Shown piece by piece: positions 19,912 through 62,958 of a stretch of 64,000 nucleotides of DNA. This DNA is from Escherichia phage FL31. The position numbers were made by a program, and so were the translations under genes. Positions within the stretch are counted from its first letter, which is position 1. Every line of letters starts with the position of its first letter. The notes beneath the pieces were generated by a model that was not told where the DNA came from, made no database searches, and saw nothing but the letters and a program-made list of their open reading frames with translations. The stretch lies in the sequence record PP400782. One strand, written 5' to 3'.

Positions 19912-22900
19912 ATGGCTACTTTAAAACAAATACAATTTAAAAGAAGCAAAACTGCAGGAGCACGTCCTGCCGCTTCAGTATTAGCCGAAGGTGAATTGGC
20001 TATAAACTTAAAAGACCGTGTACTTTTTACTAAAGATGACCAAGGAAATATTATTGATCTGGGTTTTGCTAAAGGTGGTAGTATTGACGGGAATGTTATT
20101 CATACTGGCAATTATAACCAAACTGGCGATTATACTTTAAATGGCACCTTCACTCAGACAGGTAATTTTAATTTAACCGGTATTGCTCGAGTAACTCGTG
20201 ATATTATTGCCGCTGGGCAGATTATGACTGAAGGCGGAGAACTTATTACAAAAAGTTCAGGTACAGCGCATGTTCGTTTTCATGATTCAGCTAATCGTGA
20301 ACGTGGAATCATTTATGCCCCGGCTAATGATGGATTAACTACGCAAGTAGTTAATATCCGCGTTCAAGACTACGCCGCCGGTGATGAAAGCACCTATGCA
20401 TTTTCAGGCAGTGGCCTATTTACTTCACCTGAAGTATCAGCATGGAAATCTATGTCAACTCCTCAGATTTTGACAAATAGAGTTATTACTAATAATAAAT
20501 CTACGAGCGATTATGATATTTATTCTATGGCAGACAACGTTCCATTGTCTGAAAGCACTACTGCTATTAATCATCTCCGTGTTATGCGCAATGCTGTAGA
20601 CGCTGGTGTATTCCATGAAGTTAAAGATAATGATGGAATAACTTGGTATACCGGAGATGGCTTAGACACTTATCTTTGGTCGTTTACCTGGTCCGGCGGA
20701 TTGAAAGCAGGCCATTCTATTTCTGTTGGTACTCCTGGTGGCAATAAAGGATACTCTGAATTAGGGACTGCTTCAATTTCTCTTGGCGATAATGATACCG
20801 GGCTAAAATGGCATCAGGATGGATATTATTTCAGCGTCAATAATGGAACGAAAACATTTTTATTTAGCCCTAGCGAAACAACTAGCCTAAGAAAATTTGT
20901 AGCTGGATATTCTACTAATGGAACAGATTTAACTACTCCTCCGACTGAAAACTATGCATTAGCCACTGTTGTTACTTACCATGATAATAACGCGTATGGT
21001 GACGGTCAAACTCTTTTAGGTTATTATCAGGGCGGTAATTATCACCACTATTTCCGCGGTAAGGGTACTACAAACATTAATACTCATGGCGGTTTGTTAG
21101 TTACTCCTGGTAATATTGACGTTATTGGTGGTTCTGTTAATATCGATGGTAGAAATAATTCTTCTACACTGATGTTTAGAGGTAACACAACTGGTGCTAG
21201 TTCAGTTGATAATATGACAATTTCTGTATGGGGTAATACGTTTACTAATCCTAGTGTAGGTAATCGTAAAAACGTTATGGAAATTTCTGACGCAACTAGT
21301 TGGATGAGCTATATTCAAAGACTTACTACTGGTGAAGTAGAAATGAACGTCAATGGTTCATTTGAATCATCTGGTGTTACTGCTGGAAATAGAGGAGTTC
21401 ACACAACAGGCGAAATTTCATCCGGAGCAGTGAATGCGCTTCGCATTTGGAATGCAGATTATGGAGCTATTTTTAGACGTTCAGAAGGCAGTCTTCATAT
21501 TATTCCAACTGCTTATGGTGAAGGTAAACATGGTGATATCGGTCCACTTCGCCCGTTTAGTATGGCTTTAGATACCGGTAAAGTTACTATTCCAGATTTA
21601 CAATCAAGTTACAATACGTTTGCTGCTAACGGTTATATTAAATTTGTTGGTCATGGAGCGGGTGCCGGCGGTTATGACATTCAATATGCTCAAGCGGCCC
21701 CTATTTTCCAGGAAATTGATGATGATGCTATAAGCAAATATTATCCTATTGTTAAACAGAAGTTTTTAAACGGCAAAGCTGTTTGGTCTTTAGGTACTGA
21801 AATTAATTCGGGTACATTCGTTATTCATCATCTGAAAGAAGATGGTTCACAAGGCCATACGTCTCGTTTTAATCAGGACGGTACTGTTAACTTCCCGGGT
21901 AACGTTCAAGTTGGTGGTGGCAGAGCTATTATTGCTGAAAATGGTAACATTTTCTCTGATATCTGGGAAACATTTACTTCAGCTGGAGACACTACAAATA
22001 TTCGTGATGCGATAGCTACTCGTGTTTCTAAAGAAGGTGACACGATGACTGGTAAATTGACTTTATCTGCTGGAAATGATGCCCTTGTTTTAACTGCAGG
22101 CGTGGGTGCTTCATCGCACATCCGTAGCGATGTAGGTGGTACAGGTAACTGGTATATAGGCAAAGGCGGCGGCGATAATGGTCTAGGTTTTTACAGTTAC
22201 ATTACACAAGGCGGTGTATACATAACAAATAATGGCGAAATATCGCTTTCTCCTCAAGGTCAAGGAACATTTAATTTTAATAGAGACCGCCTTCATATAA
22301 ACGGTACACAATGGGTTGCGCATAAATCTGGCGCCTGGGGTGACCAATGGGGTTTAGAAGCTCCTATATTTGTAGATTTTGGATCCGTCAGCAATGACTG
22401 CTATTATCCTATTATTAAAGGAAAATCTGGTATTACTAACGAAGGATATTTTTCCGGCGTAGATTTTGGTATGCGACGCATTACTAATACCTGGGCGCAA
22501 GGTATTATTCGTGTAGGTAACCAGGAAAATGGCCATGACCCACAGGCTGTCTATGAATTCAATCATAACGGCACTTTTTATTCTCCTAACATGGTTCAAA
22601 CCGGCGCAAAACTATCAGCTGGTGGTGGTGACCCGGTATGGACTGGACCGTGTCTTGTTATTGGTGATAATGACACTGGGTTAGTTCATGGCGGTGACGG
22701 CCGAATCAATATGGTTGCCAATGGTATACATATTGCAAACTGGGGAGCAGGCTATCAATCTCATCCTGGGCTTTGGGATTCAACCGGTGCTTTTTGGACA
22801 GAAGTTGGAAGAGCTATCGTTTCTCATGGGCATCTCGTTCAGGCAAATGATAGTTATTCAACGTTTGTCCGTGATGTTTATGTCCGTTCTGATATTCGTG

Positions 22901-23223
22901 TTAAAAAAGACCTTGTTAAATTTGAAAATGCTTCTGAGAAGCTTTCTAAAATTAACGGTTACACTTATATGCAGAAGCGAGGCCTAGATGAAGAAGGTAA
23001 TCAGAAATGGGAACCTAACGCCGGTTTGATAGCTCAAGAAGTTCAAGCTATTTTGCCTGAATTAGTTGAAGGTGACCCTGATGGCGAAGCTTTACTTCGT
23101 TTGAACTATAACGGTGTAATTGGTTTAAATACAGCTGCAATCAATGAGCATACTGCAGAAATTGCGGAACTTAAATCAGAAATTGAAGAACTTAAAGCAT
23201 TAGTTAAATCATTGTTAAAATAA
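19912..23223 (+). CDS. 37: long tail fibre distal subunit gp37 with C-terminal intramolecular-chaperone (peptidase S74-like) domain
   Basis: 1103 aa; N-terminus [22 protein letters not shown]; C-terminal ...SDIRVKKDL...[15 protein letters not shown]... coiled-coil tail. Confidence 0.9.
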
Positions 23224-23228
23224 TAAGA

Positions 23229-23242
23229 GGGGCTTCGGCCCC
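23229..23242 (+). promoter_or_regulatory. UUCG hairpin between genes 37 and 38, next to the gene 38 SD
   Basis: ggggc-UUCG-gcccc followed by ttGGAGGtttatATG; no U run, so not a typical terminator. Confidence 0.4.
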
Positions 23243-23254
23243 TTGGAGGTTTAT

Positions 23255-24028
23255 ATGGCAGTAACAGGACCATGGGTAGGATCGTCTGCAGTAGTTAATA
23301 CAGGACAAAATTGGATGGGTGGCGCGGCCCAACGATTAAGAATGGGCATTCCGTTTTGGATGAGTAATATGATAGGTCGATCTGTTGAAATAATTCACAC
23401 GCTTGGAGCAGACCATAACTTCAATGGCCAATGGTTCCGAGATAGATGTTTTGAGGCAGGTAGTGCACCTATAGTGTTTAATATCACTGGAGATTTAGTA
23501 TCATATTCTAAAGATGTTCCTTTATTCTTCATGTACGGAGATACACCAAATGAATATGTTACTTTGAATATTCATGGTGGAGTTCATATGTGGGGACGAG
23601 GTGGTAACGGTACTGTAAACGGAAACCCAGGTACAAATGGCGGCGATGTAATCCAAAATGATATCGGCGGAAGACTTCGTATTTGGAACTATGGCGTTAT
23701 TGCATCAGGCGGCGGTGGTGGTGGTGCAGTGTCATTACAGAATAGCTGGGCGCCAAATGCTACAGCAGGTGGCGGTGGTGGTAGACCATTTGGCCTCGGC
23801 GGCGGTGGCGTTAATTGGCCGGGTGGTAATGCTAGTTATGACGCCCCGGGCGGTGCCGGTTACACTTCCCAATTCGGCGGAGGCAATGGTGGTGATGCTG
23901 GAGGTCGGGGCGGAGATGGATGGGGTAATCACTTATCTAGATCTGGCGGTGGTGCTCCTGGCAGAGCAGTATTCGGAAGTTCACCGTCATGGGGTGCTAC
24001 AGGCACAATCTACGGCTCCTGGATTTAA
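23255..24028 (+). CDS. 38: receptor-recognising adhesin gp38 (T2/T6 type, glycine-rich motifs)
   Basis: N-terminus [21 protein letters not shown]; several poly-Gly GRM blocks; C-terminal TGTIYGSWI. Confidence 0.85.
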
Positions 24029-32418: not shown

Positions 32419-34632
32419 TTATTTGGCCGCTTCCACGGCCTTCATGAATTTAACGATTTGAGCGACCTGTTCTTTTGAAAGAGTACCACGTCGTCCCATG
32501 TATTCTGACACAATATGATAATTGGTTTCGAATTCGATAACCATTTTATCATCATTATCGTAAGCATTATCTTTAAGCTTATCGAAAATTTTAGCACACA
32601 ATTCTAACTTCTTATTCAGGTCTCTGTTATCAGCACCTGCGAATCGATTCCATCCCCAACGATTATTTACTGTTGAGAGTTTTGCAAAGTCTTTACTGAT
32701 TTCTTTGTTCTTAGAGCTAAAATACTTACTAAGGAAGTTAAGCTCTTCATTACGAGTAATATGATTCAAATAAGGCTGTGCTCTACGACTTGGTGATACA
32801 TACTCATCATAATCCACTTTATCGATTAGCGTAATATAGTCATTAATTGATTTTTCGAACAAGCATTCTACTTCACCAAGTTTACGAACTTTCTTAGCAA
32901 TCTGTGGACGAACTACAGTGAACTCTTTAATACCTGACAAATCAGCAATACGGGTCAAGAAATTGGAGTCATAGTTCAACCAACCTTTATCTGAGTCAAG
33001 ACATTCAGCATTAGAACGATTACGAACTATAGCATAACCTTGGATTTCATCTGCTTCACTTGCCGGAATAAAGAGGTCTTCTGATACCCAAACATCGTTT
33101 TCATTCTTAAAGAATCGATGAGCACTTGGGGATTTAGGACGAGGCTCATTAGTCCGTTTCCTGACTTCAATCCATGGCTTAACGATTTGTAAAAGCTCTG
33201 AAGTCTTGTACATGTTAATGTTGTCGCCATCAAAGATACCTTTAAGGCGTTCCAGAAGTTTCATTGCATCTTCGTCTGTAGGGTCAACGAATAGTACGCT
33301 TTTACCAAAACCGCGTGGAACTTTACCAGTTAATTTAACCTCGTCTTTAGACATTTCAATTGAATTAAGAGCTCGCATTAATGGAACGCGTCCCTTAACG
33401 TCGTCAATAACAATTTCAACGTTTTTAATGTTAATGCCAATCAGGCTGTTAATTGAAATGGTTGATGATGAGCTACCACTTTCACGAATACGACGAAGAC
33501 GAGGGGATTCAACGATATCGTATACGACGCCAAGATTACACCACTCAGGCCCCATTTTAAAACGTTTGTACAACTCGGAATAAGTTAGTTGTTCTTTAGA
33601 GTATTTCAGTGATTCAATATTAGACCCAGCCTTTTCCATGTATTTACGAGCGGTATAGCCAAGAGAATCAATTTCACGGAACACACGACGTGGGTATTTA
33701 CAATCAATCCATTTCTTAGAATCTTCAGCGAACAATTTAGCATCGATTTCTGCAACGCGTTTATGGATATTTGCTACTGTACGTTTATCAAATGACAACG
33801 CTTCACGAGACGGGGCTACATCTAGTTCACCCATAGGGAATTTAATATAAGCTGTAGTGCATCGCGTCATCATCCATGTTTGTTCTTTAATAACACTTCC
33901 GATTGGATATACAATACCACCATAAACAGCCATGATATTACCACGTTCACCCCATGGAGCTTCCTTGGCCAAATAAACGTCATCGAATTCCGGGAAGTAT
34001 TTGATATCTTTAACACCGCGAACTTCTGCAATATCACCTAGAGGACGCATAACATATGCAATTTCGGATGCGAACTTTTCAAAATCTTCTGGATTAACCG
34101 GTACAACTACTTCTACACCCGTACGGTCATCAGGGCCCATCTTATCTACAAAGGTTGGCTTAATTTGTGGACCTGTGTCATCTTGGTAGATTACGTAACC
34201 ACGAACTTCACCATTATGATAAGAAGTAATGTTAAACGTATCGGTATATGCTAGTGGAGCTTTAGAGCCGAGTCCGAAACCACCAATGAAATCGTTACTC
34301 GATGTTTTAGTTGAAGCAAAATATGAGTTATAGATTCCTGGCTCTTCATCATTACCACGAATAGTGAAATCACTCATACCAGGACCAAAGTCTCGAACTA
34401 CAAAACGTGGGTCTAAACGACCTGGAGCCTGAACAATAAACTTATCAGTGCAACCATTAAGAATTTGTCCATCGATACAGTTTGTGATTAATTCACGTAC
34501 ACAAGCCAATTCTTTGTTTGTATAAAGGTCATTAGACAAAATCTTATAAACTTTACTATTGCCTTGAATAGTAAATGCTGTGCTTTTACCACCAGAACCA
34601 ATAATCGTTTCTTTAGCCGTTTCAATAATCAT
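32419..34632 (-). CDS. rIIA: rIIA protein (N-terminal GHKL-type ATPase-like fold)
   Basis: 737 aa; N-terminal ELITNCIDG...DFGPGM motifs; synteny with rIIB. Confidence 0.9.
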   Translation of the reverse strand: MIIETAKETIIGSGGKSTAFTIQGNSKVYKILSNDLYTNKELACVRELITNCIDGQILNGCTDKFIVQAPGRLDPRFVVRDFGPGMSDFTIRGNDEEPGIYNSYFASTKTSSNDFIGGFGLGSKAPLAYTDTFNITSYHNGEVRGYVIYQDDTGPQIKPTFVDKMGPDDRTGVEVVVPVNPEDFEKFASEIAYVMRPLGDIAEVRGVKDIKYFPEFDDVYLAKEAPWGERGNIMAVYGGIVYPIGSVIKEQTWMMTRCTTAYIKFPMGELDVAPSREALSFDKRTVANIHKRVAEIDAKLFAEDSKKWIDCKYPRRVFREIDSLGYTARKYMEKAGSNIESLKYSKEQLTYSELYKRFKMGPEWCNLGVVYDIVESPRLRRIRESGSSSSTISINSLIGINIKNVEIVIDDVKGRVPLMRALNSIEMSKDEVKLTGKVPRGFGKSVLFVDPTDEDAMKLLERLKGIFDGDNINMYKTSELLQIVKPWIEVRKRTNEPRPKSPSAHRFFKNENDVWVSEDLFIPASEADEIQGYAIVRNRSNAECLDSDKGWLNYDSNFLTRIADLSGIKEFTVVRPQIAKKVRKLGEVECLFEKSINDYITLIDKVDYDEYVSPSRRAQPYLNHITRNEELNFLSKYFSSKNKEISKDFAKLSTVNNRWGWNRFAGADNRDLNKKLELCAKIFDKLKDNAYDNDDKMVIEFETNYHIVSEYMGRRGTLSKEQVAQIVKFMKAVEAAK

Positions 34633-34644
34633 ATTTTTCTCTCA

Positions 34645-34845
34645 TCACAAGTTACGTTTAAAAATTTCTGCCACTTCGAGAAGTTCTTCTTTAGTAGCTG
34701 TATCGGTTTGTATTTTATATCGAATTTCTTTAAAGCGTTCTTTAAAGGACTCTGCTGACTCGATATCAAAAAATCTTTGGATAAGCCGGAATTCCCGGAG
34801 CACTGCTTTATCAAAAAGTTCCAAGTCCACATTATATGTTCTCAT
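34645..34845 (-). CDS. hypothetical protein (66 aa)
   Basis: ORF immediately upstream of rIIA. Confidence 0.4.
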   Translation of the reverse strand: MRTYNVDLELFDKAVLREFRLIQRFFDIESAESFKERFKEIRYKIQTDTATKEELLEVAEIFKRNL

Positions 34846-34937
34846 AATATTCTCTTCAGTAGATTCCTAGGGCACTATTACTAAAGACCATATAATCTAT
34901 CATCTTATGTGTAATAGTGCCTCAGGCGATTCAGGAT

Positions 34938-36038
34938 TTACGCTGTGAAGATTTTATCCCACATCGCAACAACCGCATCTCGGTTATACTTCTTCCATAC
35001 TGCTTCAGCACGTTTAACTCGAGCTTCGTATGTGTCAGTGAATTCTAATACAGCTTTTGTGTAAAGCGCAACTACTTCTTTCTTAGGAGTAGAGGAATCA
35101 ATTTCTACACGCACAGTATCTGGGTCATATTCGAATGTCGCGTGCGGATAATCCTTAAAAACTAACTGGATTACAGGGACACCTTTAGAGATGGCTTCAA
35201 TAGAACTATTCTCTACCGTACCTGTGTCAGGACACGTATTAATAAGTGCTTTAGCTGTTTTAAGACGTTCCATGATTTCACTGTGTGGAGCATCAATAAT
35301 AACAGGATATTTAGCTGGTGGCGCCCATTTGCTTGGACAGTATCCTGCACCATTTTCGCCTAGTGCTTTAATCGCTTCAAGAGCAACATCAGTACGACGC
35401 ATTTTAGTGTCATAACGTTGTGCACTAATAATCAGATCCGTCGCCGGAAGAACTTCAGGTTTCTCATTCAAACAAATAACCGGATAATCTTCGGCTTCAA
35501 ACAACGGATTTGCTCGCCAATAATCATAATCAATTTTGTCAGTCAGACCTGAAGTCATATAACAATATTTGCGTTCAAATTCACGGAAGGCTTTAGTAGG
35601 AGCATAACTCTTACCACCGTTCTTATGAATTTGAATAGTCTGGTCCCAAATTTGAACAATGCCACGAGATACCGGTTCAAATGGTGTTGCCATAAAATTC
35701 TTATGAACTTTAGAGAGACCCGCGTCTTTAATTGCCTGAACGGTTAGTTTGGTCGGTTCCATTGTAACAACGAAATCATACTCATTAATGCCGGCTAGTT
35801 CAACAATCTTACGAGCCATAGTATAACTCATACCTAGACTGAATTTAGTCAGATGACCAACAGGATGATGATTAACCTTCCAGTCACCAAACGTGTCATT
35901 ATCAAAGCCGATATAATCAATATCAGCACCGATGGACACAAGATATTTCAACACATTTAAATGTACTGCTTCAAGACCACCTTGTACACGTTCTGGGTTA
36001 AATGGGACTGCGCGAGATGGGATAAACATAACTTTCAT
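34938..36038 (-). CDS. GT-B fold glycosyltransferase (GT4-like); candidate DNA sugar transferase
   Basis: N-terminal GGLE motif (PERVQGGLEAVHLN) and C-terminal E-x7-E / G-x-P-V-I signature (TVENSSIEAISKGVPVIQL); lies between gene 39 and rIIA where T4 has no such gene. Confidence 0.65.
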   Translation of the reverse strand: MKVMFIPSRAVPFNPERVQGGLEAVHLNVLKYLVSIGADIDYIGFDNDTFGDWKVNHHPVGHLTKFSLGMSYTMARKIVELAGINEYDFVVTMEPTKLTVQAIKDAGLSKVHKNFMATPFEPVSRGIVQIWDQTIQIHKNGGKSYAPTKAFREFERKYCYMTSGLTDKIDYDYWRANPLFEAEDYPVICLNEKPEVLPATDLIISAQRYDTKMRRTDVALEAIKALGENGAGYCPSKWAPPAKYPVIIDAPHSEIMERLKTAKALINTCPDTGTVENSSIEAISKGVPVIQLVFKDYPHATFEYDPDTVRVEIDSSTPKKEVVALYTKAVLEFTDTYEARVKRAEAVWKKYNRDAVVAMWDKIFTA

Positions 36039-36044
36039 AATTAA

Positions 36045-36082
36045 GCCTTATTAAAATTAAAATGAAGCTCCCGAAGGAGCTT
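36045..36082 (-). terminator. terminator-like hairpin after gene 39
   Basis: Minus strand agctcc-UUCG-ggagcu overlapping the gene 39 stop, followed by a U-rich tract. Confidence 0.5.
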
Positions 36083-37898
36083 AGGACATCCATTCTTTAC
36101 GAAGTTCTGAATCATCACCCAACAACATTTCAAAGAGTTCTTTCCAATTTTCAGGAAGTTTAACTACGTCGTACACAGGGTTCTGAATCATTTCACGATA
36201 CTCTGACTTTTCAAGGGAGCCTAATCCCTTGATGTATCGAATACTATGCTTAGGCAGTGTATCTTTAACTTCTTCATACTCAGCTACAGTATAAAACCAT
36301 TTTTGAGTTTTGCCAATTTGTGCAATAATTACAGGTGTTTTAACAAAGCGAATACGTCCTTGTTCAAACAATTCAGGCCAATTACTAAAGAAAGCAAGCA
36401 AAGCAGGATAAATACTTCCAAGACCGTCATGATCGGCATCGGTCATAATTGCAATATTACGATAGTTCGTATTCTCTGCCTTTTCACCAAGAATAAGACC
36501 TGTGATAGCACAGATATCGAAGAGCTCTTTGTTCTTCATCATATCAGCATATGACATACCCCAGCTATTCATCACCTTACCACGTAGTGGGAATCCGCCG
36601 TGTAGTTCACGGTCACGAACATCAATGAGATAACCAATTGCAGAATCACCTTCTGTTAAAAACAATGTCGTATCTGCATCTTTACCACATTGGTTAGCTT
36701 TAATATGCTTATGAACCTTAGCTTTAGTTGCCTTTTTAGCTGCTTTAGTTTCTGCAGCCTTTTCTGCCGCCAATTTACGAGCTAATGCTGCTTCAACAAT
36801 AGGCATAATCAAGGCTTCGTTTTTAAGAAGTGCTTGAGCAATTTTCTTAGCATCTAATTGGATATGATTACGAATATCACCATACGTTGACGTTAAACGT
36901 TCTTTAGTCTGAGAATCAAAACGCATGTTGCTCATGTCTCTAATAAACATCAACATTGTGAGACATTCTTTAACACGAGCTTTAGTGACTTCAATACCCT
37001 TATATTTCTTTTTAATACCCGGCAAAAGATGTTCGCAGATATCGTCCATTACACATTCAACATGATGTCCACCATTTTTAGTATGGATATTATTCACATA
37101 AGTTAAATGACGGAAGCCATCTGGTGATGTTGTGAATGCTATAGAGACTTTATCATTTTCTTGAATGATGTTATCTTCACCAAATTGTTTAGCAAATCGT
37201 TTAAAATTACCGTCAACCTTTTTACCATTAAATGTGAACTTGATATCAGGATAAACGACTGCCAATGTTTGAAGTCGGTCTAAAGTAATATCTAAATAAA
37301 TTTGAGATAAATTATGCTCTTCAAATGAAGAGAAATCAGGAGTGAAGATTACTTTAGTGCCTTTATCTTTAGATTTCTTAGAAGACCATGATTTGTTTTC
37401 CATTCCGTTTGAACAGTTAACAGTGATTTCGTTTTCGCCATCTGACGTGATGCCTGTAAACAACGTAGAGAAGATATTAGTTAAACTACTTCCGACGCCG
37501 TTCATACCACCAGTCTTGCGTTCAGAATCATCACCAAAGTTACCACCAGCCTTTGGAATAGTCCAGGCTGCTACAGGCCCAGGAATTTGTTCACCTGTTT
37601 GGTCGGTAACTAAACCTTGAGGAATACCACGTCCGTTATCTTCCACCGAAACTTGATTATTTTTAATTTGCACATCAATTTTATTTGCAAACTTAAATGA
37701 TGTACGAATAGCTTCATCAACCGAGTTGTCAATAATCTCATCGATTAATTTAACCAGACCAGGAACATATTCAACTTGTTGATATTTACCAAACAAAAAA
37801 CGCTCATGTGCTTCTTTAGCAGAAGAACCAATATACATACCACTACGTTTCTTAATATGTTCTACATCTGACAATACCTTAATTTCATTTTTAATCAT
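36081..37898 (-). CDS. 39: DNA topoisomerase II large subunit, 39 and 60 equivalents fused in one ORF (GyrB-like ATPase + TOPRIM)
   Basis: 605 aa; ATPase motifs IDNSVDEA...DNGRGIP; TOPRIM LTEGDSA and IMTDADHDG; continuous frame. Confidence 0.9.
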   Translation of the reverse strand: MIKNEIKVLSDVEHIKKRSGMYIGSSAKEAHERFLFGKYQQVEYVPGLVKLIDEIIDNSVDEAIRTSFKFANKIDVQIKNNQVSVEDNGRGIPQGLVTDQTGEQIPGPVAAWTIPKAGGNFGDDSERKTGGMNGVGSSLTNIFSTLFTGITSDGENEITVNCSNGMENKSWSSKKSKDKGTKVIFTPDFSSFEEHNLSQIYLDITLDRLQTLAVVYPDIKFTFNGKKVDGNFKRFAKQFGEDNIIQENDKVSIAFTTSPDGFRHLTYVNNIHTKNGGHHVECVMDDICEHLLPGIKKKYKGIEVTKARVKECLTMLMFIRDMSNMRFDSQTKERLTSTYGDIRNHIQLDAKKIAQALLKNEALIMPIVEAALARKLAAEKAAETKAAKKATKAKVHKHIKANQCGKDADTTLFLTEGDSAIGYLIDVRDRELHGGFPLRGKVMNSWGMSYADMMKNKELFDICAITGLILGEKAENTNYRNIAIMTDADHDGLGSIYPALLAFFSNWPELFEQGRIRFVKTPVIIAQIGKTQKWFYTVAEYEEVKDTLPKHSIRYIKGLGSLEKSEYREMIQNPVYDVVKLPENWKELFEMLLGDDSELRKEWMS

Positions 37899-56408: not shown

Positions 56409-56957
56409 TTAACGAGCCCATTTGATGATTTCTGTAATCAAACCATTACGTTCGCTTGCATTAAATCCTATAACTTTGTTAGCACCATCATGATTAAGTA
56501 ATTGATACGTTTGGATTTTGTTATGAATTGCAAACTCTTCAAAATATGAAATGACTGTATTAAAACCGAATGAAGACAAAGTAATAAGGTCGTCTTCAAA
56601 ACTTTCAGTCATTTCGTTACGTGTTAAAATAATTGTGAACACATCATGGTTTTGGCAAAGACGAACATAGTCCTGTTCATAAACGTCAAGAATCGAGTCC
56701 GCATCTTGTCGAATACGTCCATAAACCCAGTTACTAATATATCCACGGTCTAACAGATAAATCTTAGTAGGGTCTAAATAATTCAACATCGTTTCGAAAC
56801 AGCCGACTTCATTTCGAGACTTAACATCGAAACGCCCATCAACTGTTCGTTTAGGGAAATCAATCTTTACATATCTTTCACTAATTTCCATTATGTCATT
56901 AATGAAAGTTGTTTTACCAGCATTATCTGGGCCATCTACTAAAATAATTTTAGCCAT
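56409..56957 (-). CDS. P-loop NTPase, nucleoside/nucleotide kinase-like (182 aa)
   Basis: Walker A ILVDGPDNAGKTT at the N-terminus, dNK/thymidylate-kinase-like layout; between 42 and uvsX. Confidence 0.55.
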   Translation of the reverse strand: MAKIILVDGPDNAGKTTFINDIMEISERYVKIDFPKRTVDGRFDVKSRNEVGCFETMLNYLDPTKIYLLDRGYISNWVYGRIRQDADSILDVYEQDYVRLCQNHDVFTIILTRNEMTESFEDDLITLSSFGFNTVISYFEEFAIHNKIQTYQLLNHDGANKVIGFNASERNGLITEIIKWAR

Positions 56958-56958
56958 T

Positions 56959-57858
56959 TTATTCCTCGATTACGACATCTTCATATTTAGGTATATTATA
57001 CGGCGAAGAAATTAAAGCGTTAAAGTAGATGAACTCACCAAGACCTGGATGGAATACTTCTTCAGGATTTTCGAAATATTGAATCTTCGGACGTCCTTTA
57101 AGAATTTGATAGTACTCAGTTTTAGTTGGTTTAAAAATTCGAATCAACGCTTCTTCAGGATACTTATTTCTGTCGAAGCTATTATTTGGATCAGTTATAT
57201 AAAGCGGTTGACCTAATTGAATTGCGCATTCAACAACTTGTTCAAAACGATAACACGGGTCACTAATTCGAAATGGATGAAAAATACCATCTAGATGAAT
57301 AGGAGCCAAATCACCTACAAGACGCTGCATGATGGAAGGACGTATAACTTTCTGCGTTACGATAATCTTATTACCATCTGCACCAGCGTTAACCAGCACT
57401 TCTTTTTGACGTTCATTCAACACAGTAGTTTGAAGTGAACGATTAACCGACAACATATCAGTTTTTAAGAATTCATCAATATAAAAACGTGGTTTATTAG
57501 GGTCTGCAGTGATATTGAAATTGAATTCCACATCAAAAGCGCCGTCATATCCAGTGATATCTGTGATTAGAAAATCACAGTCATAATAAGCAATTAATGA
57601 ATCAACCACAAATTCATTTTCAGACCAGAAATATTTACGAGTGTTATACGCGTTATCTTTATACCATAATGGAACAAACTTAAATTCTGGAAAAAGACGT
57701 TCGCATTCTTTAATATCAGATGCATTACGTGGATATGTAATCACATCACCCGGATTAGCACGGTGCAAATGAAGTTGGAAGTTGCCATCCTTAAGGATAG
57801 CATACTGTCCAGTTTCATAAGACCGCATACTCAAAATAGGTACGCGGAAAATAGCCAT
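56959..57858 (-). CDS. hypothetical protein (299 aa) at the locus where T4 encodes beta-glucosyltransferase
   Basis: ORF translationally coupled to gene 42 (TAATG); no recognisable beta-gt similarity. Confidence 0.5.
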   Translation of the reverse strand: MAIFRVPILSMRSYETGQYAILKDGNFQLHLHRANPGDVITYPRNASDIKECERLFPEFKFVPLWYKDNAYNTRKYFWSENEFVVDSLIAYYDCDFLITDITGYDGAFDVEFNFNITADPNKPRFYIDEFLKTDMLSVNRSLQTTVLNERQKEVLVNAGADGNKIIVTQKVIRPSIMQRLVGDLAPIHLDGIFHPFRISDPCYRFEQVVECAIQLGQPLYITDPNNSFDRNKYPEEALIRIFKPTKTEYYQILKGRPKIQYFENPEEVFHPGLGEFIYFNALISSPYNIPKYEDVVIEE

Positions 57859-58574
57859 TAGTCAAGGAATCCTTTAACATAATCAAAATCACGTTCAAAC
57901 ACATGGGCACTTACCATGGTATGAGTATAATCACCAACTTCTACATCACATTCGTTAGCGATATAATGAAGTAATTTTCCTTGGAGATAAAAATCCAACT
58001 GCATAACAACAGCACAGTTCTGAGAACGCATATGACAGTGGGTATAAAGCTTACCATCACGAATATAATAAGTCACTGAGTCAGTACATGGATATTCAAG
58101 CGTTTCGTCTGAATCAAGCAAAGCCTGATCAGAACTTTCTAGAATTTGGAACACAACTCTTCGGGAGTTAGGCTTCTCTTTAAGTTCTTTTAGAAGAGCT
58201 GGTAATTGGGCCGCAATGCGAGGACCATAGAAAGTGTTGAAGTTCGCCGGCAAAACATCTGATTTTGGTTTAGAAATAAATTTAGCGACATTAGGATATG
58301 CCTTAAACGCTTCTTCTGCGTTGGTACCACCAGAAATCATAAACTTCCAGAAGTCTTCAGCATATTCATAAGAGATGCGGTTAATACGTGGGTCGGTCAT
58401 TTTGAATGATGATGGAGTGTCAACAACTACTGTCATAGACCCAATTTCATTACAACGTCCAATACGAGAATCAGTTACGAATTCCGGGTTTTCTAAAATT
58501 TCACGATTGACTGCTTTAAATGCGGTTTGAAAATCTGCGGCTTTGATATATTTCATTGTGTTATGTTTTCCCAT
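57858..58574 (-). CDS. 42: dCMP hydroxymethylase-like enzyme (thymidylate-synthase fold; gene 42 equivalent)
   Basis: TS-family core YPCTDSVTYYIRDGKLYTHCHMRSQNCAVVMQLDFY with Asp at the position that is Asn in thymidylate synthases (cytosine-type); synteny after gene 43. Confidence 0.75.
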   Translation of the reverse strand: MGKHNTMKYIKAADFQTAFKAVNREILENPEFVTDSRIGRCNEIGSMTVVVDTPSSFKMTDPRINRISYEYAEDFWKFMISGGTNAEEAFKAYPNVAKFISKPKSDVLPANFNTFYGPRIAAQLPALLKELKEKPNSRRVVFQILESSDQALLDSDETLEYPCTDSVTYYIRDGKLYTHCHMRSQNCAVVMQLDFYLQGKLLHYIANECDVEVGDYTHTMVSAHVFERDFDYVKGFLD

Positions 58575-58618: not shown

Positions 58619-58856
58619 ATTTGAATTTCTTGGCAATGTTGATATAACGTAAAGCTTCACCATCAATACTTCCAAGAACACTATGAAGAAATGCATCGGC
58701 GTAGTATTCCAATTGAACAGGTTCTTTAATCACTTTAGCCGCTTTAGTTTCAAACAGGCCCATCAGGGCCTTTTTAAGAATTTGTTCATTAGTGTTCAGA
58801 TTCATAGTCAAAATCTCTTCATTAAGTTGGTGGTTAAAAGTTTTTCTAGAAATCAT
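58617..58856 (-). CDS. hypothetical protein (79 aa)
   Basis: ORF overlapping the end of the upstream gene. Confidence 0.35.
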   Translation of the reverse strand: MISRKTFNHQLNEEILTMNLNTNEQILKKALMGLFETKAAKVIKEPVQLEYYADAFLHSVLGSIDGEALRYINIAKKFK

Positions 58857-60013
58857 TCCGGGTACCTCAAAGCGTCATCAGAGTTAGTTATATCAATAAT
58901 AGATATAGAGTTTTCTGCTAACCCGTTTTTAGATAATTGACGTTTATAATATCTTTCACAATATGTACACGTCGTCCCGCAGATTTCATTAGCACAATCG
59001 AAATCTGGATGTCTGAACCACCTTTTTTCTAAAAAGCCATCTAACAAAGAGGTTTCAATATTTACTGTATGTGAAAACTCAGTTTCGTTTTCAAGAGTGA
59101 AAATAGTCTCTAAAGGCTTCCACAGTTCTAACAAATTACCTTCAAACTTTTCAGAAGCGTATGCTTCAAGAACTTTCAAAATGTAGTCTGTGCTACCTGT
59201 ACGTCCTGAAACTTTGAATTGAGTGATACCAATATCATTATAAAGTTTCAAATCTTGAGGACGAACAAAACGAGTTCTCAACCAGTTAAATGGGTCTGTA
59301 TCACGAGCTTTAATACAGTGCTGCATAGGATATCCGTTTAAGGATTTAGCATCATCGGCTGTAACATCAGTACTATGGAAAATATAGCAAGAGTCACGAT
59401 AGCTACAATGTGTTGTATACCCTTTACCAGCATTAGAACAGAACTCATTTACAAGAACTTCAAATATTATATTGTTCTTATTGCAAAACTCTGCTGCACG
59501 CTTCAGGAAAGAAACTGAACGGTTCTTATGAATTCCACAGCAGACCTTTTTGATATTATACTGGTCATGCAAGTATTTGATTTGAGTTACAGCATCGACA
59601 TGTAGAATTGTTGAAACTTCAATCTCAATGTCTTTATTGACTTCACGAACAATTTCCATAACAACAGGGTTAGCGATAGTAATACGCCATACGCCTATTG
59701 ACCAAAGATACTGAACATAATCCTGAATAGCTTTCTTCTTCCACTCAACTAGTTCTCTTTTTGAACCAGGATTTATCGTGTTGAGTGTATAGTTAAAGCA
59801 AATACCTAATTCGTTACAACGTTTAACGTAATCTTCTAACATCTTTTTGTCAACGTCAGGAAGCCTAAAATCAGGTCTGGCTGCTACAAAAGCCATTTCT
59901 CTTGTAGAGCCGTATACTTCATTTATCAAGCTATTAGGATAAGTTTTATTGAGCTCTACGATTTTATCAAGAAGAGCTAAATCAAAATTCGTTCCGATTT
60001 TAAAAGTATTCAT
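58853..60013 (-). CDS. hypothetical Cys-rich protein (386 aa), possible metal/Fe-S binding; part of the sugar cluster
   Basis: Cys clusters CCGIHKN, FCSNAGKGYTTHCSYRDSC, C-terminal CANEICGTTCTYC; no confident family assignment. Confidence 0.5.
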   Translation of the reverse strand: MNTFKIGTNFDLALLDKIVELNKTYPNSLINEVYGSTREMAFVAARPDFRLPDVDKKMLEDYVKRCNELGICFNYTLNTINPGSKRELVEWKKKAIQDYVQYLWSIGVWRITIANPVVMEIVREVNKDIEIEVSTILHVDAVTQIKYLHDQYNIKKVCCGIHKNRSVSFLKRAAEFCNKNNIIFEVLVNEFCSNAGKGYTTHCSYRDSCYIFHSTDVTADDAKSLNGYPMQHCIKARDTDPFNWLRTRFVRPQDLKLYNDIGITQFKVSGRTGSTDYILKVLEAYASEKFEGNLLELWKPLETIFTLENETEFSHTVNIETSLLDGFLEKRWFRHPDFDCANEICGTTCTYCERYYKRQLSKNGLAENSISIIDITNSDDALRYPE

Positions 60014-60069: not shown

Positions 60070-60471
60070 TTATAGATTCGGTTTATATGATTTAAATGTT
60101 TCGAATTCGCCTTTATTCATAAGAGCTTTGAATTCGTCAGGACGCATAGCTTTGTCGTCGATAATCCAATCATATACTGGTTTATGTGTTAGCAAATTAT
60201 GGTACTTCAAGCCAATGTTCGCCAAGTTCTGAATCAGACTTGGGAGAATGTCAATTGCTATACGACCAGGACCTACTGACTTCATACCGCGAGCAGTGTA
60301 AAGCGTTATGGTATGCCCTGCATCATACAGGGCATTAATGGCAGTCACCATTTCGACGTCTGGTTTGAAGTTCACGTAATCACGATTGTTATTCCACTCT
60401 GTTATACAATCATCGACATCAAAACAAAGATTAAGCATGTTTTCTACACGGTGCATTAGATTCGTTCCCAT
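60070..60471 (-). CDS. HAD-superfamily phosphatase (small, sugar-phosphate phosphatase-like)
   Basis: HAD motif I FDVDDCIT; motif II ITLYTAR; motif III/IV K...WIIDDK. Confidence 0.6.
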   Translation of the reverse strand: MGTNLMHRVENMLNLCFDVDDCITEWNNNRDYVNFKPDVEMVTAINALYDAGHTITLYTARGMKSVGPGRIAIDILPSLIQNLANIGLKYHNLLTHKPVYDWIIDDKAMRPDEFKALMNKGEFETFKSYKPNL

Positions 60472-62141
60472 TGATGAGTGATATCGCCACCGATTGGACG
60501 ATAGGAAACACCAGTTTCTTTATCAGTTAGTACCCATTTACCAGGATTTTTTGTAATCAGAGTAGCCGTTACAGGTTCTGCTACGTCATAACTAATAGAG
60601 CCGTCTTGAAGTACACGGCCCATGTTACGTAATTGCTTAGTCAGAAGTTCCATACCTTTATAATATGCGGCTACCGCTTTAAGTGGATTATTCTTGAAAT
60701 AACCACCTAATGCAATCCAGATAATTGCTACAGCCAAATGATGATATTCATTAAACGAACTCAGCTTTCCATATTTGTAAACTAATGGATTGATGTTAAT
60801 AGTCACATTACAAGTTGTTTCATCAATAGTAAACTGTCCCCAGGTCGGATTAGCATTGAATTCATCATAACCTGAAACAGCATAAAGCACTTTAGCTTCA
60901 TCATACAATTTTGGCCCGTAAATCTTGGTTTCGCCAAAATATCCACGAGGGTCGATAAACTTGACTTCGCCGTTATCAGTAATCATAGTATTACTGAAGT
61001 TCGGGTCACCATGAATAACAGAGTACTGTCCCTGAGAACGGTTATGATAACGAATAAGGTGTTCTAAAGCTTGTTTCAGCATTGGCTTCAGACGTCTAAT
61101 CTTAGTGTAGTTCACATGTGTGATTTTACCAAATGAATCAATCAATGGTTGAATGCTTTCACAACGATCAATAACTTTCGTATAGAATTCTTTAGTGAAA
61201 TCACGACGAACAGTTTCAGGACTTACAAAATAAGTGTCTGTGCTGAATTTCAGTGCATCTAAAATTGCATCAACAATTTGTGGACGAGCAAGACTTGATT
61301 TGGATTTAATATATTCAAATGCCGGCTTACCTTTAATGCGTTCCATTTCAAAGTTATTTTCATTAACAGAAACTAACTGAGGAACTGAATCTGATTTCAC
61401 TTTCAAATACCACGAAATCTCATCTTTCTGAAGAGCTCGTCCCTGTTCGGTTAATGCGAATTTAGTTACAGTTTCTTCACCAATTTCAACTGCATTAAAA
61501 CTACGATTAAGTTCACGAACTTCATGGGCCTTTTCAAGTTTAGGCATATCACCTAAATCAATTAGATTCATAAGCTCTGATTTATTGAATGCGCTGCCGT
61601 AAAGGAATTCTACGAAATCACGTCCTTTGCAGTATTCATGAATTTCCTCATCAGTAGAACCCATATAGAATTCCCAGTCTTTGAACTGATAAATTCCTAC
61701 AACATTACCACCTGTTGAACCTACGTTAGTGATATTTTCACCGTCGAAATTATACCGACATTCATCACCCTTAACATAGATTGCGTTAACATTCCAAGAC
61801 CATGAACCAAAATCAGGAATAATATCACACCAGTTAACAATTACGTTATGGCCGTCTAAATCTTTGTGTAATTTAGCAAGAGCATAAGCAGAACCATACG
61901 CTTCATCAACTGTACGAATAGTCACATTGAACCCTTCTTGCTCACAATAAGCTCGAACAGTTTCAGCAAATTTTGAATGAACTACTACAATAATTTCATC
62001 TGCGCCAAGGTCAGAATAAATTGTATACAAATTGCTCAGAATAGTGTCTTGTTTATAGTTAACAAGCACCTTAGGAATATGATGCGTTATTGGATACAAA
62101 CGAGTTGCCAGTCCAGCACCAAGAATAACAGCTTTTTTCAT
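60456..62141 (-). CDS. bifunctional sugar-1-phosphate nucleotidyltransferase (N-terminal) / sugar kinase (C-terminal, APH/ChoK-like fold)
   Basis: N-terminal GAGLATRL nucleotidyltransferase signature; C-terminal Brenner-type IHGDPNFSNTMI and VKFIDPRG kinase motifs. Confidence 0.7.
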   Translation of the reverse strand: MKKAVILGAGLATRLYPITHHIPKVLVNYKQDTILSNLYTIYSDLGADEIIVVVHSKFAETVRAYCEQEGFNVTIRTVDEAYGSAYALAKLHKDLDGHNVIVNWCDIIPDFGSWSWNVNAIYVKGDECRYNFDGENITNVGSTGGNVVGIYQFKDWEFYMGSTDEEIHEYCKGRDFVEFLYGSAFNKSELMNLIDLGDMPKLEKAHEVRELNRSFNAVEIGEETVTKFALTEQGRALQKDEISWYLKVKSDSVPQLVSVNENNFEMERIKGKPAFEYIKSKSSLARPQIVDAILDALKFSTDTYFVSPETVRRDFTKEFYTKVIDRCESIQPLIDSFGKITHVNYTKIRRLKPMLKQALEHLIRYHNRSQGQYSVIHGDPNFSNTMITDNGEVKFIDPRGYFGETKIYGPKLYDEAKVLYAVSGYDEFNANPTWGQFTIDETTCNVTININPLVYKYGKLSSFNEYHHLAVAIIWIALGGYFKNNPLKAVAAYYKGMELLTKQLRNMGRVLQDGSISYDVAEPVTATLITKNPGKWVLTDKETGVSYRPIGGDITHQWERI

Positions 62142-62182
62142 GTTGAAGTCCTCATTGGTAAGTAGGAGTATTGTACACTATT

Positions 62183-62316
62183 CTAGTTAAAGCATTCATA
62201 CTTTGCTTGTAGTCCAATCATAATCCATCCAATTACAAGTGTTGGAATCATTACCGGAGCCGTTAAGCTCCAGTAGATAGTCATGACAAGCATCAATAGT
62301 AAAAGTCCTATTGTTA
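62183..62316 (-). CDS. small hydrophobic peptide (about 47 aa), not in supplied track
   Basis: Manual translation MKAITIGLLLLMLVMTIYWSLTAPVMIPTLVIGWIMIGLQAKYECFN; GAGG SD. Confidence 0.25.
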
Positions 62317-62322
62317 TTGCTT

Positions 62323-62958
62323 TCATTGTTCGCCTCGTAACATGGCACCTAGTGCACCGCCTGGATGGAACTTAAGGAAATCATTAGAGGTAAATCCACG
62401 TTCAGACGAAAGGTTGATAGCAAACGTATCGATAAGCGCTAACAATAATGTAGTGGACATTGTCGGAGCTAAAGAGTTCTCGTCAACTTCTACCGCGATA
62501 CCGGTACAGAACGTATAATCAAAAAGAGCTTCGTATTCTTGTGGAATGTCAGGGTTACAATGTAACAGAATCTGTTTAACCTGAGGACGAATCATACGAA
62601 GATGTTTAGCAACACCTATCATTTCTTCAGTCTTACCAGAACGACTGATGTGAACTAATACATCATTAGGTGCAATAAATCCTGCGTCACCATGAGAATA
62701 ATGCCCAGTGTTCAAGTACATACTTGGGATACCGAGTGAAGCAAAAGTCTCGGAAGCTTTAGTTGCGATATTAGCGTTCTTACCAACACCTGTAATAATT
62801 ACTCGGCTTTCATAATTACTAAGTCCCGGGCGTCGAAGAGTTTCTAGAATAGCATTATAACGAGCAGGGTTTTGACTAATTACTTTGGCCATAGCGGCCA
62901 AAGAAGAAGCTTGTTTTATGATTGCGTCAATAGCGATAGTAATAGGAGTAGTTTTCAT
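62323..62958 (-). CDS. SIS-domain sugar-phosphate isomerase (KdsD/KpsF arabinose-5-phosphate isomerase-like, lacking CBS domains)
   Basis: VIITGVGKNANIATKASETFASLGIPSMYLNTGHYSHGDAGFIAPNDVLVHISRSGKTEE parallels the recalled KdsD SIS core (GKSGHIG...ATFASTGTPS...HGDLGMV...AISNSGES). Confidence 0.7.
   Translation of the reverse strand: MKTTPITIAIDAIIKQASSLAAMAKVISQNPARYNAILETLRRPGLSNYESRVIITGVGKNANIATKASETFASLGIPSMYLNTGHYSHGDAGFIAPNDVLVHISRSGKTEEMIGVAKHLRMIRPQVKQILLHCNPDIPQEYEALFDYTFCTGIAVEVDENSLAPTMSTTLLLALIDTFAINLSSERGFTSNDFLKFHPGGALGAMLRGEQ

Follow-up and report, generated by a model that had tools for sequence, protein, structure and literature searches.

For phage RB69, it was shown by MS/MS and NMR that the DNA contains alpha-D-Araf and beta-D-Araf-(1->3)-alpha-D-Araf, ether-linked to C5 of 5-hydroxycytosine (5hoC) and not of 5-hydroxymethylcytosine (hmC) (PMC13326640). 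The same arabinosylation has been identified in the DNA of the Mosigvirus NP, with a mono:di ratio of 1:4 (PMC13390438). RB69 ORF003c was proposed as an arabinosyltransferase in 2018 on the basis of HMM and HHpred analysis (PMC6024577). In the pathway published in 2026, RB69 gp46:47 is designated arabinosyltransferase 1 and the ORF003c product, gp3, 'beta-arabinosyltransferase 2' (PMC13326640), an assignment which was also made by the authors of PMC13390438. In the portions of this literature accessible to us, the function of ORF003c is itself given as proposed. Di-arabinosylated cytosine protects phage DNA from restriction enzymes, CRISPR-Cas and DNA glycosylases, and Mosigvirus phages are common candidates for phage therapy; the gene described here bears on how these phages build the modified base.

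A related system is that of Acinetobacter phage DLP3, in which gp77 and gp76 ('beta-arabinosyltransferase 2/3') share 43% and 41% full-length identity, respectively, with the protein described here, have the same invariant motifs and belong to the same 5hoC pathway. They differ from it in being two paralogues with 58% mutual identity, which are encoded within the modification cluster of a phage with a tri-arabinosyl chain, whereas the chain of Mosigvirus phages ends at two sugars.

The T4 alpha- and beta-glucosyltransferases (a-gt and b-gt) resemble the protein in their GT-B fold, in the use of a UDP-sugar and in acting on phage DNA, but are not members of its family by the sequence tests applied here. 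Phages T2 and T6 produce gentiobiosyl-hmC with a beta-1,6-glucosyl-alpha-glucose transferase (ba-gt), which adds a second sugar. Here, the likeness is functional and consists in the placing of a second sugar onto the sugar of a modified cytosine, while the base (hmC), the sugar (glucose) and the donor are different. Bacterial GT4 enzymes, like PimA, BshA, WaaG, MshA and BGluT, provide the closest folds after that of the phage HY126 glycosyltransferase (9iqz), and have a G-x-P-V-I motif and an N-terminal GG in common with the protein; it differs from them by the lack of a Pfam match, by E-x4-E in place of E-x7-E and by its proposed acceptor, a sugar on DNA.

The window analysed here is a stretch of 64,000 nucleotides from Escherichia phage FL31 (PP400782). 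A sequence-only reading had singled out one of its genes as the window's best candidate for transferring a sugar onto hmC in DNA. The gene is already known, from its nomination in 2018, from the structure of the HY126 protein with UDP released in 2025 and from the assignment to the second step in 2026. That reading was a correct spotting of this known gene, with an outdated acceptor and probably the wrong step, the addition of the first sugar. The present analysis adds that the base is predicted to be 5hoC instead of hmC, that the enzyme would be the second and not the first transferase, and that the motif typical of GT4 enzymes is changed.

The glycosyltransferase gene, its fold and its motifs

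The gene and its neighbours are the following.

34938..36038, minus strand: 366-aa UDP-sugar glycosyltransferase with a GT-B (GT4-like) fold, orthologous to RB69 ORF003c/gp3 and to the glycosyltransferase of HY126; proposed to be the chain-extending DNA arabinofuranosyltransferase, which adds the second sugar
36081..37898, minus strand: topoisomerase II large subunit, 605 aa, with genes 60 and 39 fused; upstream of the glycosyltransferase gene on the coding strand
34645..34845: rIIA.1 homologue, 66 aa; downstream of the glycosyltransferase gene
32419..34632: rIIA, 737 aa; downstream of the glycosyltransferase gene

The open reading frame starts with ATG and lies between the topoisomerase gene and rIIA, as described before, with the rIIA.1 homologue additionally placed between it and rIIA. 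It is a genuine gene, as the protein is matched over its full length (residues 1-366, E 1.6e-222) by PHROG 8302, a family of 'unknown function', has homologues in 211 phage records and is 98% identical to a protein of solved structure. To RB69 ORF003c (gp3; NP_861693; AAP75905), which is of equal length, 363 of the 366 residues are identical (99%). The two are one gene in sister phages, with three conservative substitutions between them and the same location, between rIIA.1 and the fused genes 60 and 39; the order in the RB69 annotation is 60plus39, RB69ORF003c, rIIA.1, rIIA. A matching order is also found in a Mosigvirus genome annotation, consisting of topoisomerase, 'putative glycosyl transferase', a small ORF, rIIA and rIIB. 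The topoisomerase gene of FL31 contains neither the translational-bypass segment of gene 60 nor 60.1 and mobA, and is also fused in RB69, whereas the T4 region is interrupted by these elements. In T4, the counterpart region consists of genes 60, 60.1, mobA and the split gene 39. The observation that no glycosyltransferase is present there held, since T4 b-gt is located between gene 42 and uvsX and a-gt adjoins gene 47.

The crystal structures of the HY126 glycosyltransferase, to which the FL31 protein is about 98% identical with no difference of substance, were released on 2025-07-16 in an apo form (PDB 9IQZ, titled 'phage HY126 glycosyltransferase') and with UDP (9IR0, '... with UDP'). The FL31 protein consists of two Rossmann-like domains with a cleft in between, as characteristic of the GT-B fold, and binding of a nucleotide-sugar donor is indicated by the UDP complex of the 98% identical HY126 protein (9ir0). 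The nearest structural neighbours after 9iqz are the GT-B/GT4 enzymes PimA, BshA, WaaG and BGluT. The protein is a soluble two-domain GT-B, GT4-like glycosyltransferase which binds a UDP-sugar and has a GT4-like C-terminal domain. These statements are based mainly on the identity to 9iqz/9ir0 and not on the AlphaFold model of the protein itself, which is weak (pLDDT 62), with about 80 for the C-terminal domain and values below 50 for residues 115-188. The poor model is due to a shallow alignment, because the family is tiny: only 5 clusters were identified in a collection of 5.8 billion proteins (90%-cluster search), and an exhaustive search of 1.84 billion cluster representatives gave about 10 true relatives. 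A profile search of the PDB sequences matched 9iqz and 9ir0 only.

On the sequence level, the relation to GT4 is less regular. The GGLE motif (residues 20-23) and the G-x-P-V-I signature (G-V-P-V-I at residues 286-290) were present as described. However, the C-terminal E-x7-E, which had been described along with them, is absent: the only E-x7-E of the protein is part of the N-terminal domain (residues 86-94), and the C-terminal motif is instead E276-x4-E281 (VENSSIEA), with both glutamates invariant among 13 family members. Residues 248-352 align at 35% identity with a remote relative that matches Pfam Glycos_transf_1, and in this alignment the canonical E-SFGITAL-E of the relative is placed opposite T-GTVENSSI-E, so that the canonical first glutamate aligns with T272/G273. 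The Pfam scan of the protein itself gave no family match, even at E<=10, and members of its family matched PF20706 (GT4-conflict) at sub-threshold level only (E 0.003-0.07). Therefore, the protein lacks the sequence hallmarks of GT4/Glycos_transf_1, namely the profile match and the C-terminal E-x7-E, despite its GT4-like fold. The assignment as a GT-B (GT4-like) enzyme stands for the fold and the structural neighbours, but not for the Pfam glycosyltransferase models and the C-terminal motif.

A structural comparison with T4 a-gt and b-gt and with GT4 enzymes had been suggested together with the original assignment. It gave the GT-B/GT4 neighbours named above, but for the T4 enzymes no similarity was found by hhalign between them and the family profile (probability 0.4% for a-gt and 0.2% for b-gt). 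With much deeper profiles, HHpred similarity to T4-type glucosyltransferases has been reported (Thomas et al. 2018, PMC6024577).

The modified base and the donor-synthesis genes

The full gene set of RB69 for the modification is present in the window, between the genes for DNA polymerase and UvsX.

62323..62958, minus strand: SIS-domain sugar-phosphate isomerase, 211 aa (RB69 ORF055c), arabinose-5-phosphate isomerase (Pfam SIS; literature)
60456..62141, minus strand: bifunctional 561-aa protein with nucleotidyltransferase N-domain and kinase-like C-domain (RB69 ORF53_52c), making UDP-arabinofuranose (Pfam NTP_transferase and weak kinase families; literature)
60070..60471, minus strand: 133-aa RB69 ORF051c homologue, HAD-like phosphatase converting Araf-1,5-bisphosphate to Araf-1-P by analogy to HY126 AfhF (synteny; literature)
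58853..60013, minus strand: peptidase-U32-like protein, 386 aa (RB69 ORF050c), inside the arabinosylation cluster
57858..58574, minus strand: thymidylate-synthase (ThyA) homologue, 5-hydroxy-dCMP synthase (Pfam Thymidylat_synt; 99% identical to RB69 ORF048c/gp48)
56959..57858, minus strand: GT-B protein of 299 aa, homologous to RB69 gp46:47 and to DLP3 gp79 (AlphaFold, Foldseek, synteny)
56409..56957, minus strand: 182-aa RB69 ORF045c homologue, predicted thymidylate-type nucleotide kinase (synteny with RB69; structural assignment from PMC13326640, Table 1)

The sugar-nucleotide genes (60070..62958) are located about 24-27 kb from the glycosyltransferase gene, in agreement with the distance of about 25 kb given before. 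No Pfam match was obtained for the 133-aa protein. For RB69 ORF050c, the only entry in the 2026 paper is 'sugar or heterocycle reductase', and the DLP3 cluster contains no counterpart of this U32-like gene between gp80 and gp81.

For RB69 gp48, synthesis of 5-hydroxy-dCMP has been shown (PMC13326640). The FL31 homologue contains an asparagine (RSQN) at the position where T4 gp42 has an aspartate (RSND), an exchange of Asp to Asn by which Lee et al. recognise 5-hydroxy-dCMP synthases (PMC13326640). With an identity of 99% between the synthase and RB69 gp48, the modified base would be 5-hydroxycytosine and not hmC. Judged from the sequence of the synthase, cytosine in FL31 is thus predicted to be hydroxylated and not hydroxymethylated, so that 5-hydroxymethylcytosine, which had been named as the acceptor before, is replaced by 5hoC.

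The proposed transferases for the first and the second arabinose

For the 366-aa protein, a role as chain-extending DNA beta-arabinofuranosyltransferase, which adds the second arabinose, is considered probable. In the proposed pathway, the thymidylate-synthase homologue of the cluster would make 5-hydroxy-dCMP, as shown for the 99% identical RB69 gp48, and the modified nucleotide would then enter the DNA. There, the 299-aa GT-B protein would place the first alpha-D-arabinofuranose on O5 of the base. With UDP-arabinofuranose as the donor, expected to come from the genes at 60-63 kb for isomerase, kinase/uridylyltransferase and phosphatase, the 366-aa protein would add beta-D-arabinofuranose to the O3 position of the first, DNA-bound sugar, resulting in beta-D-Araf-(1->3)-alpha-D-Araf-O5-dC. 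The longer sugar chain would give phage DNA more shielding from host nucleases and other defences. The assignment to the second sugar is based on the phyletic pattern, the copy number and the activity of homologues.

The 299-aa protein has a GT-B-type structure predicted with high quality (AlphaFold pLDDT 94). Its Foldseek matches include UDP-GlcNAc 2-epimerases, MshA, HepE, BGluT and 9ir0. It has no Pfam match, and its family profile found nothing among the PDB sequences. To the 366-aa protein, no similarity was identified by BLASTP or by hhalign of the family profiles. Its gene abuts that of the 5hodCMP synthase, in the slot which is occupied by b-gt in T4, beside the gene 42 homologue. In the window the gene is intact, while the RB69 GenBank record contains the split ORF046c/047c, attributed to a sequencing error. 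The family is present in 348 phage records and tracks the synthase (342 records); it is universal in the pathway, whereas the family of the 366-aa protein (211 records) is accessory. The 299-aa family extends to Klebsiella, Serratia, Yersinia, Proteus, Providencia and Edwardsiella phages, to Dhakavirus and to Shewanella Thanatos phages, with no homologue of the 366-aa protein in any of these groups.

The 366-aa family, in turn, is confined to Mosigvirus-type and Acinetobacter phages, all of which carry the cluster for 5hodCMP synthase and UDP-arabinose. Among the 211 records obtained by tblastn, 155 are Mosigvirus-type coliphages and Shigella phages with at least 95% identity, and 55 are Acinetobacter phages with about 43%; apart from a few records with generic names, the complete organism tally contains only Escherichia, Shigella and Acinetobacter. 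One record named 'Tegunavirus' was also matched, while Yersinia Tegunavirus phages otherwise contain only the 299-aa protein. The number of copies per genome, two in Acinetobacter phages and one in Mosigvirus, follows the length of the sugar chain: Thanatos, with no copy, is mono-pentosyl, Mosigvirus, with one, is di-arabinosyl, and the DLP3-type Acinetobacter phages, with two, are tri-arabinosyl. The mono-pentosylation of Thanatos DNA has been reported in PMC13326640.

This distribution also bears on whether the 366-aa protein might be the transferase acting on 5hoC itself, with the 299-aa protein being epimerase-like or involved in sugar activation. Such an arrangement would agree with the proposal of ORF003c as 'the' arabinosyltransferase by Thomas et al. 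2018 (PMC6024577), with the UDP-GlcNAc 2-epimerases among the best Foldseek matches of the 299-aa protein and with the UDP-xylose pyrophosphorylase activity reported for the Thanatos homologue TH1_063. However, 137 phage records contain the synthase and the 299-aa protein without a homologue of the 366-aa protein, including Thanatos, whose DNA is still pentosylated. In addition, the DLP3 homologues were inactive on 5hoC DNA (PMC13326640), and it is the 299-aa gene which holds the slot of T4 b-gt beside the gene 42 homologue. We consider this arrangement improbable. For the transfer of the first, base-proximal arabinose (alpha), the 299-aa protein is likely the better candidate, and the 366-aa protein was not upheld as the window's best candidate for transfer to the base, given the 299-aa GT-B protein beside the synthase and its presence in 348 records as compared to 211.

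The activity of homologues has been characterized for DLP3. Here, gp76 and gp77 together transferred a third arabinose from UDP-Araf onto RB69 virion DNA, while each was inactive alone, and plain 5hoC DNA was not modified by any of the glycosyltransferases when assayed one at a time (PMC13326640). The inactivity of the single DLP3 homologues counts against the proposed role, as the protein may require a partner or a complex. It might accordingly be supposed that the 366-aa protein is active only when complexed to the first transferase or to a further protein of the phage, or that the second sugar is added to the nucleotide before replication. The joint activity of gp76 and gp77 would fit the former, and the latter would fit the experiments of the same authors, which leave both a mononucleotide and DNA as possible substrates of the first arabinosylation (PMC13326640). 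However, Mosigvirus contains a single member of the family, and the third sugar of DLP3 went onto virion DNA in vitro (PMC13326640). The timing in better-known phages also counts against these variants. The glucosyltransferases of the T-even phages act after replication. We therefore give either variant little credence, and addition of the second arabinose on DNA by the 366-aa protein is preferred.

In DLP3 (L002, 1643..3938), the homologues gp76 and gp77 are located inside the modification cluster. The single copy of Mosigvirus, about 20 kb from the cluster at the junction of rIIA and topoisomerase, represents the relocation of one pathway gene. Its being unlinked from the cluster might also suggest an acceptor other than DNA, for example a protein, a small molecule or a glycan of the host envelope, along with a function apart from DNA modification, the more so as the structural neighbours PimA, BshA, WaaG and BGluT use lipids, small molecules or polysaccharides. 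Against this, both Acinetobacter homologues are encoded inside the arabinosylation cluster, beside the kinase, the first glycosyltransferase and the synthase, the family is restricted to phages with the arabinosylation pathway, and the homologues act on DNA in vitro (PMC13326640). An acceptor other than DNA is therefore highly improbable, and the role in sugar modification of phage DNA, with the gene located apart from the donor cluster, was supported as originally suggested. For phage Bas46, PMC13216743, citing Mahler et al. 2025, states that deletion of the arabinosyltransferase Aat leads to sensitivity to a defence system; Aat is not equated here with the gene described.

In RB69, the linkage of the second sugar is beta-D-Araf (PMC13326640). 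An alpha linkage followed by a beta linkage, both probably built from one donor pathway, would imply two phage GT-B enzymes with opposite stereochemical outcomes. In a simple NJ tree, the FL31 protein branches outside the gp76/gp77 duplication, and its linkage specificity can therefore not be derived from orthology. Catalysis by GT4 enzymes is retaining. The remaining curiosity of the protein is its invariant E-x4-E variant of the GT4 motif, together with the stereochemical course. A GT4-like fold with E-x4-E in place of E-x7-E would here make a 1,2-cis beta-D-arabinofuranosyl linkage, and if the natural donor were the alpha anomer, the protein would be an inverting enzyme in an otherwise retaining clade. 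This is a speculative idea which we do not expect to hold; if true, it would represent a novel way of catalysing furanosyl transfer to a sugar attached to DNA.

Flanking elements and base composition

Two inverted repeats flank the glycosyltransferase gene.

36065..36082, minus strand: GC-rich tetraloop hairpin AAGCTCC-TTCG-GGAGCTT, followed by a T-rich tail (terminator scan and fold)
34871..34921, minus strand: perfect inverted repeat of 11 bp, GGCACTATTAC / GTAATAGTGCC, which folds into a long hairpin with a 29-nt loop, inside the 92-nt spacer between the stop codon of the glycosyltransferase gene and rIIA.1

The upstream hairpin overlaps the stop codon of the topoisomerase gene, is located 26 nt upstream of the start codon of the glycosyltransferase gene and looks terminator-like from its sequence. 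A promoter scan gave 6 sigma-70-like matches, compared to 5.1 expected from shuffled sequence, and thus no excess, and neither the T4 late motif TATAAATA nor a full MotA-box was present upstream of the glycosyltransferase gene. The spacer with the downstream repeat has an MFE of -28.5 kcal/mol, and its hairpin is not followed by a T-run; RNA processing, stability or regulation are conceivable roles.

A horizontal acquisition of the glycosyltransferase gene was also considered. Its GC content is 0.40 compared to 0.376 for the window, a gap too small to argue from. A local rise was observed elsewhere in the window, at 22001..24000 on the plus strand, with a GC content of 0.43-0.46 compared to about 0.37 and a strong positive GC skew of up to 0.26. 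It is located within and after a 1103-aa ORF (19912..23223) and the ORF at 23243..24028, and possibly corresponds to genes for a glycine-rich tail-fibre tip or adhesin.
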